Below, piece by piece: positions 4,367 through 24,314 of a stretch of 64,000 nucleotides of DNA (the first letter of the stretch is position 1; every line of letters starts with the position of its first letter). The notes below the pieces were generated by a model, which saw nothing but the letters and a program-made list of their open reading frames with translations, did no database searches and was not told the DNA's origin. Position numbers and translations under genes: made by a program. Source of the DNA: Micavibrio sp. (GTDB taxonomy: Bacteria; Pseudomonadota; Alphaproteobacteria; Micavibrionales; UBA2020); contig JAPWJZ010000008.1 of assembly GCA_028283745.1 (NCBI GenBank), forward strand, positions 435,290-499,289, written 5' to 3'.

Positions 4367-5028
4367 CTAAGGGCCGCTCATCGCCGCCGCCATCATGAAT
4401 AGGGCGAAGGCGAGGCTAATGATGAGTGCGGCGGCGGGCACAAAAAGGGCAATCCTGGTCGCACTTCCTCCCGTTACGCGCGGCACACCGAGGTAGATTA
4501 GATATACTGCGTAAAGCGTGAAGATTACAGGCATGCCTAAAATGAGGAAGTAGAGGGGGGTGCCGATGTGTTCGACGTAAGGCCGGAAAGCGGAATGACG
4601 GTCGAACAAAAAACGGTCGGCTAGGCCAGATAATACGGGCATGAATGCTTTTGACAGGTAGTAGGGCGTGGACGCGTAGATAATAAGCTTGTATCGCTGT
4701 ACTGTTTCCAGTCCGTCATCCCTTTTCGGGGTAAAAAGTGCTGTAATGCCGCTTGAAATGGCAACCAACATCACGCCCGTTAACGTGTAAAGAATTACCG
4801 AGATGACCCAATCACCGACGCGTGCATGGTTTTTCTGTGTCACTATTTGCAAGGCGGCGGCTGCCGCGTTAATGACGAAAAGCAGAGGGATGAAATATTC
4901 AAAATAAAGCTTTTTGACGGTCGTTTGCTCTGCCGCAATTTCTTCCCACTCACGCCTTGGGCGAGAAATGATGTTTTTGGCGCGAAGCGCTATCTTTATG
5001 AAGTCGACGTCGATGCTGCTGCCCATGA
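4367..5028 (-). CDS. Yip1-domain integral membrane protein (paralog 2 of tandem pair)
   Basis: N-terminus (IISRPRREWEEIAAE) is paralogous to the upstream gene (IILKPAAEWDKIAGE). Multi-TM C-terminal region. Start set at Met98 of the 316-aa track ORF, because the upstream part overlaps paralog 1. Confidence 0.6.
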
Positions 5029-5077
5029 GATGCCTGTTGGTGATGCCTGTTGCTGTGAATAATGCGCTATCTATTAA

Positions 5078-5113
5078 AAAACGGCCGCACCCGGAATGTG
5101 ATGCGGCCGTTTT
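5078..5113 (-). terminator. 12-bp-stem hairpin (AAAACGGCCGCA...TGCGGCCGTTTT) containing 27-nt repeat copy 2, between the two Yip1 paralogs
   Basis: Perfect inverted repeat with A/T runs on both flanks, lying between 5137 (paralog 1 stop) and the 5026-5028 start codon of paralog 2. Confidence 0.55.
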
Positions 5114-5136
5114 AAAGCGGTTAAGTTGTTTGAAGT

Positions 5137-5694
5137 CTAGCGGGCGAGTGCCATGCCCACAGCCATAACGACGGCGGTCACAACCAGCGCCACCACGGTC
5201 ATGATGACAGCGTTGCTTTGCGGCACTTTTGCCAGTTTCGGCACGCCGATATAGAACAGGTACAGGCCGTACAGTGCGCCAAGGCCTGCAAGCCCGCCAA
5301 GCGACGGCAGAATCCACAGCACGCCCGCAATCCAGCCGGGAGTGGACGAATAAATTGCCAGTTTAAAAGCCTGCTCCTGGTTGCCGTCACCCTGTAGTTT
5401 CGGCGCCAGCTGGCTGACGACAAAGCCGAGAACGCCGACGGCGGCAAGGCTCATCACATAGGTCGTGATCGCAGCGCCCAGCGCGCCGACCAGATGCGCA
5501 TGCAGGAAAAGAACCATGCCGACAAAGCTGCACACTGCGGGAATAGCGGCGAGGATAATGGCGTAGTTCAGGTATAGCCCCTTGATGCTGGCGGCTTCAC
5601 CGGCAATTTTGTCCCATTCGGCGGCGGGTTTCAAAATGATGTTCTTGGCGCGCTCGATAATGTTGTTGATGCGCGCGTCATTGGTGACAGACAT
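5137..5694 (-). CDS. Yip1-domain integral membrane protein (paralog 1)
   Basis: 185 aa. Soluble N-terminal segment followed by a Gly/Ala-rich multi-TM region typical of the Yip1/DUF1282 family. Confidence 0.65.
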   Translation of the reverse strand: MSVTNDARINNIIERAKNIILKPAAEWDKIAGEAASIKGLYLNYAIILAAIPAVCSFVGMVLFLHAHLVGALGAAITTYVMSLAAVGVLGFVVSQLAPKLQGDGNQEQAFKLAIYSSTPGWIAGVLWILPSLGGLAGLGALYGLYLFYIGVPKLAKVPQSNAVIMTVVALVVTAVVMAVGMALAR

Positions 5695-17759: not shown

Positions 17760-18332
17760 TTAGTGCAGCAGGCCCAGGTGTTCAACCAGGGTTTGCGTGC
17801 CAAGGAAGATCAGCATCGCGCCGCCGCACAGCTCGGCGATTTTGCCGAAGCGCGCGCCCACGTATTGCCCCATCATCATCCCAATCGTCACCATGAGGAA
17901 CGTCGCAAGGCCGATGGCGGCAGCGGTAAGGCCGATTTCCGACCCGAGGATGGAAATGGTCACGCCCACCGCCATTGAATCAATGCTGGTGGCAAAGGCG
18001 GTGAGGACAAGCTGTCCCAGGCCGTGGCGCTGGGGCTTTTCATCGTCTTCGGTTTTCTGCACGCCTTCATAAATCATCTTCGCGCCGATAAGGCCGAGGA
18101 CGATAAAAGCGATCCAGTGGTCAATGGCGGCAACATAGCTGCTGGCGGCAATGCCAATGGCCCAGCCAATGAGCGGTGTTGCGGCTTCAATGCTGCCAAA
18201 AATGGCGCCGGTGCGAAGCGCTTCCGAAAAGCGCGGCTTGTGCAGGGCTGCGCCCTTGCCGATGGAAACGGCAAAAGCATCTGTCGACATGCTGAAGGCC
18301 AGCACGGCTGTTGCGAGAAGATTGACGGTCAT
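17760..18332 (-). CDS. mntP: manganese efflux pump MntP (DUF204)
   Basis: LLATAVLAFSMSTDAFAVSIGKGA and the repeated DSMAVG motif. Start set at the Met matching the family N-terminus. Confidence 0.8.
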   Translation of the reverse strand: MTVNLLATAVLAFSMSTDAFAVSIGKGAALHKPRFSEALRTGAIFGSIEAATPLIGWAIGIAASSYVAAIDHWIAFIVLGLIGAKMIYEGVQKTEDDEKPQRHGLGQLVLTAFATSIDSMAVGVTISILGSEIGLTAAAIGLATFLMVTIGMMMGQYVGARFGKIAELCGGAMLIFLGTQTLVEHLGLLH

Positions 18333-18394
18333 TTTGTTTAAAAACTCCGCCCGGCGAAAGAGACGACACAATCCAAGCTCAAGGGCCTGCCGAG

Positions 18395-18530
18395 TGAACG
18401 GCCCTTGTGGATTGTATCAGTCTCGCCAAACGGAAAATCCGCCAGCAGGACCATGCAGCGAACTGCAAGTATGTTGACCCTGCTCCACGGGGATGGAATG
18501 TGGAGGCTACTCCCCGATAACTAAGCGATT
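18395..18530 (-). ncRNA. yybP-ykoY (Mn2+) riboswitch-like leader of mntP
   Basis: Minus-strand leader contains GGGGAGUAGCC, CAACAUACUUG and UUGGCGAGACUG segments. These match conserved blocks of the yybP-ykoY motif. It lies directly upstream of mntP, the canonical regulated gene. Confidence 0.55.
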
Positions 18531-18639: not shown

Positions 18640-20160
18640 TTAATCTGCACGGTAGTTCGGCGCTTCTTTCGTAATCGTCACGTCATGCACGTGGCTTTCG
18701 CGGTAGCCCGCGCCCGTCATGCGGATGAACTGCGCCTTTTCCTTCATCTCCGGAATGGTTTTGGCGCCGGTGTAACCCATGGAAGCACGCAGGCCGCCGA
18801 CCATCTGGTGAATGACGTTGGCGATGGGGCCTTTGCTCGGCACGCGGCCTTCAACGCCTTCCGGCACCAGCTTTTGCGATTCCTTGACGCTGCCTTGCGA
18901 ATAGCGGTCGGCGGAACCGCGCACCATCGCGCCGACAGAACCCATGCCGCGGTATGATTTATAGGAGCGGCCCTGGTAAAGAATGACTTCACCGGGTGCT
19001 TCATCCGTGCCTGCGAAAATGCCGCCCATCATCACGCAATCCGCGCCCGCCGCAATCGCTTTGGCAAGGTCGCCGGATGATTTAATGCCGCCGTCCGCAA
19101 TCACCGGCACATCGTGGCGCATGGCGACGGTGGCAACATCCATGACGGCGGTCAGCTGCGGCACGCCCACACCCGCCACCACGCGCGTGGTGCAGATGGA
19201 CCCGGGGCCGATGCCGACTTTAAGCCCGTCAACGCCCGCGTCAATCAGCGCCTTTGCGGCATCGCCGGTTGCGATATTGCCGGCGATGATCTGCACGCGG
19301 TTGTTGTGGCGGCGCAGGCGCTTCACCATGTCGATCACGTGCTTGGAATGGCCGTGCGCGGTGTCGACGACGATAAGGTCGATATCCGCATCCATCAGCG
19401 CTTCGGCGCGGGCAAAGTTGCCGTCGCCCGTGCCAATGGCGGCGCCGGTGCGCAGGCGGCCTTCTTCGTCTTTCGCGGCGGTCGGGTGCAACTGCGCTTT
19501 TTCAATGTCTTTCACGGTGAAAAGGCCAATGCAGCGCTCGTCATTATCGACCACCAGCAGCTTTTCAATGCGGTGCTTGTGCAGCAGCTTCTTCGCCTTA
19601 TCTTTATCAACCGTGTTGTAAACCTTGACGAGATTTTCCGACGTCATCAGTTCGCGGATGGGCTGCTTTTTGTTGTCGGCAAAGCGCACGTCGCGGTTGG
19701 TGAGAATGCCGACAAGCTTGCCGTTCGCCTTCGTGACCGGCACGCCGGAAATGCGGTAACGCTGCATCAGCTCAAGCGCTTCGGCAAGCGGCGCATCCGG
19801 GTTGATGGTAATGGGGTTCAGCACCATGCCCGATTCATAACGCTTCACGCGGCGCACCTGTTCGGCCTGCGCCTCCGCATCCATGTTGCGGTGAATGATG
19901 CCCATGCCGCCCGCCTGCGCGAGCGCAATGGCGGCTTCCGCTTCCGTCACCGTATCCATCGCGGCGGAAAGGAGGGGGATGTTCAATGAAATCGTCTTGG
20001 TGATGCGGGTGGAGGTATCTGCCTCCAGCGGCTGAATTTCAGATGCGCCCGGCAGCAGCAGCACATCATCAAACGTCAACCCTTCCGTCTTGCGGATTTT
20101 GTCATGCAGGTTGATGGAAACGGCTTTTTTGCGGGGGGCGGTCTTTTTCATGGCAATCAT
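18640..20160 (-). CDS. guaB: IMP dehydrogenase
   Basis: [11 protein letters not shown] and CBS pair; catalytic Cys loop [11 protein letters not shown]. Confidence 0.95.
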
Positions 20161-20307
20161 CCTTGCGAACGGGCGTTAAACGCGACTCGTGATTGCAATT
20201 CTTTATATATGACGCAGTGCAAAAAGTCTAAATAAATCAAAGAATGGCTTTTATTAGAAGATTGCTCGCATAACATTTCGGACGAAATCTTCTTAAAGCG
20301 AGGGTGT

Positions 20308-21252
20308 TTAGTAATGGTAGACGTGGATGACTGTTTTAATATCGGGGGAAATCAGGATAATGCCGCCTAATCCATAGGCATAAAAACTTCCAGGGTGGGT
20401 TACAGCCTGTGTGAAAATTTTCTCTACGTTTTCGTCTACTTGGATCGAATATCCACCAAAATAACTATAAATATAACTTTCGGCAGGAACCTTGTTGGGG
20501 TTGGATACCTGCAGATCAAGCTTAGGGCCCTTTACGGATATCGGGGTTTCGTACCATGTTAAAGTACTCGAATACGTATTGTCGGCCCATTTTGTATTTT
20601 CGAGATATTCAGTTTTTTTGGCTCTTATTGCGGCAATTGTTCTTTCGGGGAGTGCATATAAAATCACACCGGATTCTGCGCCGGAAGGTTTAAATCCCCA
20701 TTCCATCGTATCTCTGTATGTAACTTTAGAAATATTAAGTTCTTTTGGCAATGCTGCTAAGAATTCCTTCGCCACGATATTGTCGTATGTTGCAAAAGAC
20801 ACAACTGTGCACAGAATTATGCTGCATACTAACTTCAAAGCCTGAATAACAATGTCGTAATCTTTTTTACTCCGATTGAGAAGCCAATCGACAGAATAAT
20901 AATAAAAAACTGCAGCAAACGTGACCGTTGAACAGATGAGCGCTGTGTCCAGCCTTAAACGCCATCTATTGAGCCAAAAGTCAATAATTGTTAGCAGCGC
21001 AACAATGCCCAAGCACCAACGCAGTGTAAATTTCTCGAGACTTCTTTTGATGAATTTCAGAATAACAAGCGCGCAAACCAAGAGAGTTGGTGCAGCGATT
21101 AGGACGAAAACGGAAGCTAATTCAAAATCCCCGATAGTGTCGTAAAACAAATTATAAACGAGAAGTCCAAACGTCACTCCCAACACACAGGTGACGACGA
21201 TGCAACCCGCGTGTTTAAGATAACTTGCTTGAGCTTCTTCTTTTACTCCCAC
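20308..21252 (-). CDS. hypothetical polytopic membrane protein, AT-rich (~40% GC) foreign-looking gene
   Basis: 314 aa with ~5 N-terminal TM helices and a ~145-aa C-terminal soluble domain. GTG start is embedded in the last codons of guaA. Composition contrasts sharply with the flanking ~60% GC. Confidence 0.5.
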
Positions 21253-22880
21253 TCAATCGTTCCGGGCGGTTTGGAGGTGATGTCGTAGACGACGCGGTTG
21301 ATGCCTTTGACCTCGTTGACGATGCGGACGGCGCAGCGGCCGAGGAAGTCATGGGGGAGTGGGGCGTAGTCGGCGGTCATGCCGTCGATGGAGGTGACGG
21401 CGCGCAGCGCCAGCACGTGGTCATAGGTGCGGCCGTCGCCCATCACGCCGACGGTGCGCACGGGCAGCAGCACGGCAAAGGCCTGCCAGGTTTCGGTGTA
21501 AAGCTTGTTGGCGTGCAGTTCCTCGATGAAAATCGCGTCTGCCTTGCGCAGAATGTTGAGGCGCTCTTCCGTGATTTCACCGGGAATGCGGATGGCAAGG
21601 CCGGGGCCGGGGAAGGGGTGGCGCATGACGAATTTTTCGGGGATGCCCAGCTCGACGCCCAGCGCCCGCACTTCATCCTTGAACAGGGCGCGAAGCGGCT
21701 CCACCAGCTTGAACTTCATGTCTTCCGGCAGGCCGCCGACGTTGTGGTGCGACTTGATGGTGACGGTGGGGCCGCCGGAGAAGGAAACGCTTTCGATTAC
21801 ATCGGGGTAGAGCGTGCCTTGCGCGAGGAAGGGGGCTTCGCCCGCGCGCTTTTTCGCATCCTCGAACACGTCGATGAAGGATTTGCCGATGATTTTGCGC
21901 TTTTGCTCCGGGTCCGTCACGCCTTTGAGGCGGGAGAGGAAAATTTCGCCGGACTGCTCATGCACCAGCGGAATATTGAAGTGGTTGCGGAACAGGCTGA
22001 CGACTTCTTCGGCTTCATTGAGGCGCATGAGGCCGGTATCGACAAAAATGCAGGTGAGCTGGTCGCCAATCGCGGCATGCAGCAGCGCGGCGACAACGGT
22101 TGAATCAACCCCGCCGGACACGCCGCAAATAACGCGTTCCTTGCCGACCTGTTTGCGGATGGCTTCGATCATCTCGTCTTTAAATGCCGCCATCGTCCAG
22201 TCGGGCTTGCAGCCGGCGATATTGAGGACGAAGTTGGAGATAATCTGCTTGCCTTCGGGCGTATGCACAACCTCGGGGTGGAACTGCACGCCGTAGAGCT
22301 TGCGTTTTTCATCTGCCACCGCGGCATAGGGGCAGGTGGCGCTTTTGCCGATGGTCGTGAAACCGTCGGGAATTTTGGAGACGCTGTCGCCGTGGCTCAT
22401 CCAGACCTGCGGCTGCGTGCCGTTCTGCCAGATGCCGTTGAAAAGCGGGTTCTTGAAATCTTCGACCGTCAGGTGCGCGCGCCCGAATTCGCGTTTCGCG
22501 GAAGGCGAGACTTTACCGCCCAGTTGCTCGCACATCGTTTGCAGGCCGTAGCAGATGCCGAAGACCGGCAGGCCGAGGGTAAAAATTTCCGCATGCGCGC
22601 GGGGGGAATTTGCCTCCGTCACCGAAGCGGGGCCGCCTGACAATATAATGGCCTTGGGGTTCAGCTTTAAAATTTCCGTCATTGGCGCATTAAAGGGTAG
22701 CAGCACCGAATAAACGCCAATCTCGCGGATGCGCCGGGCGATGAGCTGCGTTACCTGCGATCCGAAATCGAGGATAACGACGGTGTCGTGGGCTTTCTTC
22801 GTGGCGGTTTCGGCGGGGGCTGTTGCGGCTTGGGCGGTCATGGCGGGCTTTCGGTTAGGCGTTAAAAAGCGGCCTATCAT
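21243..22880 (-). CDS. guaA: GMP synthase (glutamine-hydrolysing)
   Basis: [17 protein letters not shown] GATase domain. ATP-PPase SGGVDS loop. C-terminal dimerisation domain ends with IEWE. Confidence 0.95.
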
Positions 22881-22949: not shown

Positions 22950-24314
22950 TCAGAGCTTTTCCTTGCGGTGGTCAAGCAGCCGCAGCGCAAAAAACGCAAG
23001 GCCGGACAGGAGGATGATAAGGACGCCAACGCGCAGGGCGGAAGGCGCCTGCAATGCGCCGCCTTGCGTGAAGTCCACGGTATCCACAATCACCGATAGC
23101 GTGGAAATCAGCGTGAAGGCCAGCATGAAGACGCCAAGACGCTTGTTTTGCAGGTGGTTCAGGTTGTCGCGGATGCGGTTATAGATTTTCTCGACAAGGT
23201 CGAGCTTGGTGTTGAGGTTGTTGAAGCGGTCGCGCGTGTGCCAGGCTTTTTCAAGGGCGTGCCACACCTTCAGCCCCTGCGGGTCAAGGCTGTTGTCAAA
23301 ATCATCGTAGACGGATTTGAACAGCGTCACCTTCGATTGATATTCGACGATGACGCGCGACTGTCGCTCCAGCAGCGACATGTCGCTGGAGTGCTTATGG
23401 CGGTCAAGGTCGTTGCTGAGGTGGAAAAGGTCGCGGTCGATATCTTCCGCCGAGACATAGAAAATGTTCTGCGCGCGCACCATGCTGGGCAGCGTATTTG
23501 TATCTGAAACTTTCGCGCGGGATTTATCGTAGACGGCGACGGAATTGCCGTTGCCGGGGAACAGGGCGACGCCGGTGGCAATGGCGCTATCCTCAAGCAG
23601 TTCGGCCTGCTCGCTGTACACAAGGTAGCGGGCGCGGTCGCGCAGCATGCCAAAATCGGCTTCCGTATCGCAGGCGACGGTGAAAAGACGGTGGACCCAG
23701 AAAAGGTCGCCGAGCCCGTGCGCGAGGCAGCTGTTCGACCAATAGCCGGTATGGGGCTTGCTGCCCAGGAAGCTGGCGACGACATAGTCGGGCTTCAGCG
23801 CGGCGTGCACCTGCTCGAACGTTTCCATGTAAAGGCTGCGCCAGTCGGCAAGGGCGGAACCCGCGTTTTCGGCGGCGGTGCGGTATTCATCCAGCGTCAG
23901 GTCGCGAAGCGCCGTGATCTCGCCCTTGAAGGTCGCGGAGCCGTAGCCCATGTCGTACAGGCGAACGTCAATACTGGAAATGGTAAAGGCGCAGTCACCC
24001 GCAACCGTTACTTCCCCTTTAAGCGACAGGCGCTTTAGCGTTGCGGTTAAAAAATCCCCCGCCAGCTGGCGGCCGATGAAGTAGCCGGGAATGATGGTGC
24101 GCCCGCGCCGCGTGTCCACGTCGATCTGCATATGGTTGCCGCGCACGGCATAACCGGGGGCATACCATTCCGCGCCCATTTTCTCCGCAAGGTTATGTTG
24201 GTATTCGGCATAGCCCTGCGCCACCAGCGCCCGCGTATCGATAATAAGTCCCGACCGCATGGGGCCGTTATAGGCCATGTCGCAGCGCTGGTTTTTGGCA
24301 AGAAAAATGGTCAT
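22950..24314 (-). CDS. hypothetical protein with a cytoplasmic domain and two C-terminal TM helices (CorA-like topology, no GMN motif)
   Basis: 454 aa with no recognisable catalytic motif. C-terminus is FMLAFTLISTLSVIV...ALRVGVLIILLSGLAFFALRLL followed by a basic tail. Confidence 0.55.
   Translation of the reverse strand: MTIFLAKNQRCDMAYNGPMRSGLIIDTRALVAQGYAEYQHNLAEKMGAEWYAPGYAVRGNHMQIDVDTRRGRTIIPGYFIGRQLAGDFLTATLKRLSLKGEVTVAGDCAFTISSIDVRLYDMGYGSATFKGEITALRDLTLDEYRTAAENAGSALADWRSLYMETFEQVHAALKPDYVVASFLGSKPHTGYWSNSCLAHGLGDLFWVHRLFTVACDTEADFGMLRDRARYLVYSEQAELLEDSAIATGVALFPGNGNSVAVYDKSRAKVSDTNTLPSMVRAQNIFYVSAEDIDRDLFHLSNDLDRHKHSSDMSLLERQSRVIVEYQSKVTLFKSVYDDFDNSLDPQGLKVWHALEKAWHTRDRFNNLNTKLDLVEKIYNRIRDNLNHLQNKRLGVFMLAFTLISTLSVIVDTVDFTQGGALQAPSALRVGVLIILLSGLAFFALRLLDHRKEKL

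Follow-up and report, generated by a model that had tools for sequence, protein, structure and literature searches.

A slot of varying AT-rich content behind guaA in Micavibrio-like Alphaproteobacteria

The 3' end of guaA is a known integration site. GIsul2 integrates there by means of a 19-bp att site with the core GAGTGGGA, and its integrase mobilises an integrase-less, att-flanked unit in trans (PMC9376610). The same end of the gene is listed as the site of ATE-1, a Brucella suis island and Mesorhizobium elements (PMC5704250, PMC8627217). How does the AT-rich DNA that separates guaA from guaB in a Micavibrio genome compare with these islands, IMEs and ICEs (GIsul2, ATE-1, the IncP island of Brucella suis, the elements of Mesorhizobium)? 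The junction is the same and the C-terminus of guaA is left intact, the variable DNA starts right after the tail with GAGTGGGA, and both relatives and metagenome contigs have duplicate tails where one unit borders on the next; the integrase-less, att-flanked CR2-sul2 unit that moves in trans with GIsul2 offers a further parallel. Unlike the described islands, the locus in our window (the whole stretch of 64,000 nucleotides that was analysed) has one 1-kb gene and no integrase, replication genes, transfer genes or second att. Its cargo ORF, orfX, begins within the att core and would be read in continuation of guaA, and the slot that it fills is fixed across a whole clade, whereas the islands are sporadic. 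The literature on Micavibrio and horizontal transfer yielded nothing relevant.

Two other known systems invite comparison. Like integron cassettes, the units found behind guaA are small, mostly single-ORF, promoterless, often AT-rich and stacked at one recombination site; they have no assigned function, and their expression would depend on the platform. Unlike integrons, the locus has no IntI, attI, Pc or attC, the repeat derives from the end of a housekeeping gene, and expression would come from translational coupling and not from a cassette promoter. Reading the 77-nt tail of the segment revealed no GTTRRRY-type core (fold z-score -0.86), and no integrase was found nearby. The locus also resembles chromosomal hotspots flanked by core genes, in which conserved genes bracket AT-rich content of unknown function that differs between genomes. 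Unlike those hotspots, it has a left boundary of single-nucleotide precision that matches a known att core, and the duplicated tails point to site-specific events, not only to homologous exchange. We therefore read the orfX slot as a local form of something already known, and not as a single insertion that interrupted an operon.

The minus strand of the window reads, in order, a gene for a 454-aa protein, guaA, orfX, a spacer, guaB, a manganese riboswitch and mntP. The features needed here are the following.

22950-24314, minus strand: conserved gene upstream of guaA, 454 aa
21243-22880, minus strand: guaA (GMP synthase, 545 aa; Pfam GATase 1.2e-46, GMP_synt_C 2.9e-42, NAD_synthase), with the 3' end ...ATT GAG TGG GAG TAA; relatives 75-92% identical
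21260-21263, minus strand: GGAA, purine run resembling a weak Shine-Dalgarno sequence, 8-11 nt 5' of the orfX GTG
21247-21254, minus strand: GAGTGGGA in the guaA tail, core of the attB of GIsul2-type integrases (sequence; PMC9376610)
20308-21252, minus strand: orfX (314 aa, GTG start, from the ORF list; GC 0.413, GC3 0.410)
20231-20307, minus strand: AT-rich tail of the variable segment, 77 nt, fold z-score -0.86
20202-20230, minus strand: guaB promoter-like element, with -35 TAGACT at 20230-20225, a 17-nt spacer and -10 TATAAA at 20207-20202
20161-20307, minus strand: 147-nt spacer from orfX to guaB, with guaB as drawn in the ORF list
18640-20160, minus strand: guaB (IMP dehydrogenase; Pfam IMPDH, 3.6e-161, and CBS)
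17760-18371, minus strand: mntP (manganese efflux)

The 454-aa protein encoded at 22950-24314 (minus strand) has 52-76% identity in relatives, and its sole family match is a weak CorA-like C-terminal stretch. At the other end, the manganese riboswitch (yybP-ykoY, RF00080, 53.3 bits, E 3e-12) lies at 18346-18527 on the minus strand, directly 5' of mntP.

The segment between guaA and guaB has a GC content of 0.409, as against 0.601 and 0.604 in its flanks, and is the sole 1-kb bin below 0.51 GC in the 64-kb window. The three codon positions of orfX have GC contents of 0.457, 0.371 and 0.410, and the last of these compares with a mean GC3 of 0.696 (sd 0.048) in the 39 other long ORFs of the window (z = -6.0). 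The earlier note had remarked on an AT-rich segment between two genes of about 60% GC and had proposed GC3 as a check; on both counts the segment proves a strong compositional outlier. It had also seen no integrase, tRNA or IS element beside the gene, and none was found at the locus. The 64-kb window contains no tRNA; the single ORF of the segment has no Pfam match; and tblastn with two verified integrase probes gave no match to a tyrosine integrase in the window or in the loci of relatives. A search for a repeat pair flanking the segment returned only short, chance-level repeats, and Rfam matched no RNA element in it, the riboswitch before mntP being the only match. Elsewhere in the window, an ORF with a Yip1 domain (4367-5317, minus strand) has a GC content of 0.527 and a GC3 of 0.555, below its neighbours; the only other GAGTGGGA in the window lies inside it (4944-4951), probably by chance.

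Is the segment peculiar to this genome? Scanning with GuaA, one genome per species, gave 18 related loci in which GuaA is 75-92% identical; most of their records bear no title beyond alphaproteobacterial MAG, and two carry the name Micavibrio. Both genes were located in 13 relatives, and in each of these the order is guaA, an insert of 553-2628 bp, guaB. The inserts have GC contents of 0.42-0.51 with flanks of about 0.60, each lying 5-21 points below its own flanks. Over a wider set (L001-L038, L083 and L213), all slot occupants are 5-24 GC points below their flanks; the low GC extends to a gene of the orfX family in L016 and L022 that looks vertically co-inherited, and family members in other taxa match the GC of their hosts. 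The ORFs of the inserts are mostly unrelated to orfX and to one another. The low-GC ORFs in the slots of relatives have no match in Pfam or PADLOC, and the only two genes recognised in these gaps, one for a methyltransferase and one for an FAD oxidase, have normal GC. In L001, the closest relative found, with a guaA 92.6% identical, the place of orfX is taken by an unrelated ORF of 352 aa, which bears out the accessory part of the earlier reading of orfX as cargo, and the unrelated occupants of sister genomes are intact ORFs of 92-352 aa. Similarity among the 18 loci ends exactly at the guaA stop codon and resumes at the -35 element of guaB. The 1012-nt variable segment of the window has no nucleotide similarity to 211 other loci, in a comparison in which guaA and guaB, as controls, matched 196 and 33 loci, respectively. 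The slot behind guaA is a clade-wide feature, and its content varies between Micavibrio-like species.

The right-hand edge of the variable segment is the guaB promoter-like element, which is kept in 14/14 aligned loci as T[AG]GACa, 17 nt and TATAAA, with TGCAAyC after it. A generic scan for promoters and terminators did not rise above shuffled sequences and missed this conserved element, and the 77-nt tail that follows orfX contains no convincing terminator-like fold (z-score -0.86). The earlier note had supposed a 147-bp spacer with a fresh promoter for guaB and a guaBA operon split by the insert. A promoter-like element does lie in the spacer, but it is not fresh, given its conservation in all the aligned loci. 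The spacer measures 147 nt as the ORF list draws guaB, from 20160; the start conserved in relatives is the ATG at 20151 (context GGTTGCcATG in 13 relatives, with AAGGA preceding it in the window), which is probably the real one. The operon itself we reject: the order is guaA and then guaB in the window and in the 13 relatives, every one of which has the low-GC insert, and guaB has its own -35 and -10. Since the insert and a separate guaB promoter are common to the whole clade, guaB was already separately promoted and orfX did not split an operon.

The reading that we favor, with somewhat more confidence than doubt, is that Micavibrio-like Alphaproteobacteria have, directly behind guaA, an old slot for accessory genes that the AT-rich segment fills at present; the slot is bounded on the left by the guaA stop codon and on the right by the conserved promoter-like element of guaB. 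Its content would change through recombination at the guaA tail and, probably, through homologous exchange as well, by way of the conserved genes on either side; for a swap of the whole slot between guaA and guaB, homologous recombination fits as well as site-specific insertion. Lacking, on this reading, a promoter of its own, orfX would be transcribed with guaA and translated from a GTG in the last codons of guaA by termination-reinitiation coupling. What survives of the foreign cargo gene that the earlier note saw breaking up guaBA is its accessory nature and its foreign-looking composition, but neither the broken operon nor the one-off insertion.

Evidence for recombination at the guaA tail comes from the window, from relatives and from metagenomes. 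The window has GAGTGGGA at 21247-21254, similarity to the 18 relatives ends with the guaA stop codon and guaA is intact, as in insertions at the 3' end of this gene. The far-end att repeat and the tyrosine integrase within the element that mark GIsul2-type elements were not found in the window, and its slot has no second tail copy at <=5/18 mismatches or by local alignment. With a single tail copy and no integrase detected, orfX itself is only a candidate for mobility. Extra tail copies on the same strand, placed exactly at the start of an orfX-family gene, do lie inside the slots of L005 and L016 and, in decayed form, at the corresponding position of L022 (mismatches are scored against the 18-nt guaA tail).

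L005: extra tail copy AAGGACTATTGAGTGGGA, 3/18 mismatches, core perfect; a 128-aa ORF between the copies
L016: extra tail copy GGGGACGATTGAGTGAAA, 2/18 mismatches; a 110-aa ORF between the copies
L022: decayed tail copy at the corresponding position, 5/18 mismatches; the orthologous 110-aa ORF between the copies and a further 248-aa ORF after the decayed copy

Estimated from the count of near-matching 18-mers, the chance expectation of such tail matches within the slot is <1e-3. They represent only two independent tail duplications among the relatives.

When metagenomes were scanned for the guaA tail, 120 loci matched, of which almost all are ends of guaA; several contain near-exact tail copies in tandem. 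Second tail copies are present also in L093, L114, L135, L142, L149, L152 and L178. In L178 (1432-2985), four copies within 1.6 kb delimit at least two small units and a 237-aa ORF (MGIRG...) begins at a GTG inside a tail copy. In L149, L104 and L135 there are two copies each, 585-859 bp apart, with a BLUF gene between those of L135. In L152 (12994-13975, guaA on the plus strand), two copies of the guaA 3' end of about 45 nt surround a unit of 0.94 kb that lacks an integrase and carries HicB, HicA and DUF2283 genes. The 4.4-kb island between the two tail copies of L093 starts with a tyrosine integrase (PF00589, 7.9e-14), an integrase fragment is found at the tail-copy locus of L142, and integrase-like genes follow just behind guaA in L087, L091, L109 and L173. 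The second tail copy of L114 (5736-5993) belongs to a partial duplicate that repeats 85 codons from the 3' end of guaA; it lies 3.8 kb downstream of the genuine gene, and the island between carries a LysR-like gene and others. Viral contigs gave five tail matches. Two of these (L087, L091) are guaA ends with integrase-like matches just downstream, and two (L089, L090) lie clearly outside guaA; with so few matches, those outside guaA may be due to chance. The tandem tail copies and the integrase genes behind guaA indicate that insertion at the guaA tail, with accretion of units, is real and widespread.

Cargo families recur at these ends. Membrane proteins with a YQTLI motif, 28-80% identical, form a second family, found in L009 (7585-8304), L013 (7603-8025), L141 (521-1225) and L135 (886-1671); in these different genomes they sit directly behind guaA or behind a duplicated guaA tail. 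A further pair of homologous proteins, of 164 and 157 aa and 50% identity, is encoded in L008 (7599-8093) and L010 (8053-8526). One of the pair opens its slot, starting at the GTG embedded in guaA; the other comes after a 123-aa ORF that has a weak match to DUF6188, and no tail copy lies between the two slot ORFs of L010.

How would a gene in this position be expressed? The GTG of orfX is at 21252-21250 and the TAA of guaA at 21245-21243; their first bases are 7 nt apart, as the earlier note had it, and the two reading frames overlap by 10 nt. An in-frame TGA immediately 5' of the GTG makes a start further upstream impossible. The next start codons of orfX (codons 23-26) lie within helix 1, past the conserved SYLKHAGC, which aligns with SYLRHAAC of the L016 homologue P0107 ahead of any other start codon, and orfX aligns over its full length, N-terminal stretch included, with the 324-aa homologues of L016 and L022. 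The deposited protein PW788_12140 (Micavibrio sp. MAG) is identical and also of 314 aa, so the depositors' pipeline picked the same GTG. With a 10-nt overlap and no alternative start ahead of conserved protein sequence, guaA and orfX have the marks of a coupled pair, and the predicted coupling of orfX translation to that of guaA is well supported by sequence.

The guaA tail itself shows traces that could reflect a role in expression. The GGAA run arises from the Gly-Thr codons of guaA and reads GGGGA in most relatives. Of the 36 invariant Gly columns of guaA in 17 relatives, only the one before the GTG (9-11 nt upstream of it) is never GGC or GGT, appearing as GGGGA or GGA, and the Glu codon that supplies the GTG is the sole codon-invariant one among 16 invariant Glu columns in the same set. 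GGA and GAG are also frequent in the guaA tails of distant outgroups, which weakens the argument from synonymous constraint. An ORF of 92-341 codons is open from the tail GTG in 11/19 related loci, and the proteins read from the GTG within GAGTGGGA in these loci begin with MGV or MGI and are mutually unrelated. Among other guaA ends with the same tail, such an ORF is open in only 10/104; we estimate the expectation in random sequence of 42% GC at ~0.3%. In six more metagenome fragments, whose tails share at least 80% identity, no long ORF runs from the GTG; two of these (L131 and L184) carry just 20-26 codons of guaA, making placement in the clade impossible.

A bolder version of the slot reading, which we hold tentatively and consider doubtful, is that the guaA tail serves as an integron-like platform for both acquisition and expression, with the GTG in GAGTGGGA and the Shine-Dalgarno-like run before it. 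Any integrase-less cassette that recombined at the tail would owe its translation to coupling with a strongly expressed housekeeping gene, and its arrival would shift the older cassettes, along with a tail copy, further downstream.

What does orfX encode? The earlier note described a 314-aa protein with five transmembrane helices and a C-terminal soluble domain, and hydropathy and AlphaFold2 agree with it.

20791-21210, minus strand: membrane region of orfX, five helices (residues 15-154), from Kyte-Doolittle hydropathy and AlphaFold2
20311-20760, minus strand: C-terminal alpha/beta domain of orfX (~residues 165-314), predicted periplasmic

The mean Kyte-Doolittle values of the helices are 2.04, 2.20, 1.42, 0.86 and 1.87; the weakest is that of residues 102-123 (0.86), and the other four are clearly hydrophobic. 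Helices are seen in the single-sequence AlphaFold2 model as well, at low confidence (pLDDT 41.9), and the alignment-based model reaches a pLDDT of 88.6. The K/R-rich loops at 67-77 and 124-131 fit an N-in/C-out topology, which would place the C-terminal domain in the periplasm.

Searches with orfX against Pfam, NCBIfam, PADLOC and PHROGs gave no match above threshold; weak lines to RppB and phrog_29050 were set aside as noise. Foldseek against the PDB and a profile search of PDB sequences gave no match. A word-indexed protein search returned only the orfX protein itself and, with the family profile, five proteins. Exhaustive phmmer over 1.84 billion representatives detected 197 homologues at E<=1e-3 and 45 at E<=1e-10, the best being P0002 (E = 2.7e-21) and none exceeding 37% identity. 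The protein thus has no recognisable motif, as the earlier note had it, in curated libraries, but it does have relatives. The homologues match orfX over residues ~140-313, corresponding to the last helix and the soluble domain, and most are proteins of ~180 aa with one helix and the domain. The family consensus is ...EESWGFGPGGNETG.IVY.LP...W..TP...YGFGI.ID...PGSYYAYGR.G..IV.P..RRV.Y.Y.G. Residues G50, W97 and P101 are invariant in alignment A1, orfX included, and the final Gly of the family is Tyr in orfX. The significant whole-domain match and the invariant residues kept in orfX mark it as a member of the family, whose proteins combine at least one TM helix with a domain carrying WGFGPGGNETG...W..TP...YYAYGR.

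Among the 64 family members scanned, none contains a Pfam domain. Members are present on Rhizobium and Methylobacterium plasmids, where they are annotated 'hypothetical protein', and in unrelated metagenome contexts, where their GC is that of the host contig (0.28 to 0.72); none was found in a phage collection. The neighbourhoods outside the clade (L081, L082, L084, L212, Rhizobium, Methylobacterium) share no common gene that hints at function. A neighbor-joining tree of the family is uninformative and left unresolved by the long branch of orfX, at a distance of at least 0.69 to every homologue. We conclude that orfX is a real gene of an unnamed, widespread family and not an orphan. The protein is probably an envelope protein, and the most likely reading, at low confidence, is an inner-membrane anchor whose C-terminal domain forms a periplasm-facing module for binding proteins. 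The alpha/beta domains of the PsbP, Mog1, DcrB and Eag (DUF1795) type are named among the closest known systems. A role in a defence island or in toxin immunity was dropped, as no match of any kind was found.

Within the clade, the family keeps returning to guaA. The comparison of relatives that the earlier note had in view gives a divided answer: homologues of orfX occupy the same position in L005, L016, L022, L083 and L213, yet not every relative has one there. Searching the ORFs of relatives with a profile detected the family in the slot of L016 and L022 (324 aa each) and of L005 (172 aa). In L083, from another Micavibrio MAG, P0003 (341 aa) has the same 10-nt overlap with the end of guaA and a GC content of 0.368 versus 0.607 for guaA; as guaB lies upstream in this locus, it is the guaA tail, not guaB, with which the family is linked. 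In L213, whose contig is cut, P0138 immediately precedes the guaB promoter. Between L016 and L022, dS is 0.23 for the family gene and 0.29 for guaA, and dN/dS is 0.33 and 0.013, respectively. Identity between family members within the clade is 20-34%, which this rate would account for under vertical descent. The family thus appears to be a recurrent, fast-evolving occupant of the slot position in the clade, and probably its oldest. Whether orfX was inherited vertically in this lineage or regained is close to an even question, in which we lean slightly toward inheritance.

Could orfX instead be one recent horizontal gain from a donor of about 40% GC, inserted between genes that were formerly co-transcribed? 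We judge this unlikely, even though its z of -6 in GC3 and its absence from L001, the closest relative, speak for it, and a GC3 of 0.41 is hard to square with long vertical residence in a genome with a GC3 of 0.70. Nothing more than 37% identical exists among the 1.84 billion representatives, the contig of the nearest homologue (P0002) is small and has a weak NikA-like match next to it, and the plasmid-borne members in Rhizobium and Methylobacterium likewise speak for such a gain. A single recent event, however, leaves a low-GC insert in 13/13 relatives with both genes located, and the orfX family at the same position in five other related loci, to coincidence; guaB was already separately promoted by an element conserved clade-wide, and the flanking repeats and the integrase of an insertion were not found.

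The opposite extreme, which we find decidedly improbable, is a never-mobile ancestral gene whose AT-richness arose from weak selection and AT-biased mutation, and which other lineages lost or replaced through ordinary deletion and de novo ORFs. The family gene of L016 and L022, with its dN/dS of 0.33 and a dS similar to that of guaA, behaves in this manner, the family is present at the slot position in four deep branches, and orfX has no att copy distal to it. Purely vertical descent nevertheless leaves unexplained the duplicated guaA tails of L005 and L016/L022 and the second cargo family at guaA ends (L009, L013 and L141 versus L135). The 29-point GC3 deficit is far beyond the spread of native genes, and intact ORFs of 92-352 aa as unrelated occupants of sister genomes are unlikely for decayed DNA. 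That orfX is a spurious or decaying ORF in AT-rich intergenic DNA, as the lack of a curated family match and the poor single-sequence model (pLDDT 41.9) might suggest, is very improbable in view of a 314-codon open frame in DNA of 41% GC, the retention of G50, W97 and P101, the phmmer match to P0002 at E = 2.7e-21 and the alignment-based model at pLDDT 88.6.

On the favored reading, that of an old slot behind guaA with changing occupants, what looked like an odd foreign gene becomes a single example of a slot that the whole clade shares, located where integration is already known to occur. For annotation, the conserved end of guaA can be used to locate small integrase-less cargo units in metagenomes. 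An unnamed membrane-anchored family of 197 cluster representatives is now defined, with a confident structural model open to study. If the coupling model holds, promoterless cargo would be expressed in a simple way, from a start codon that the att core of a housekeeping gene itself supplies.
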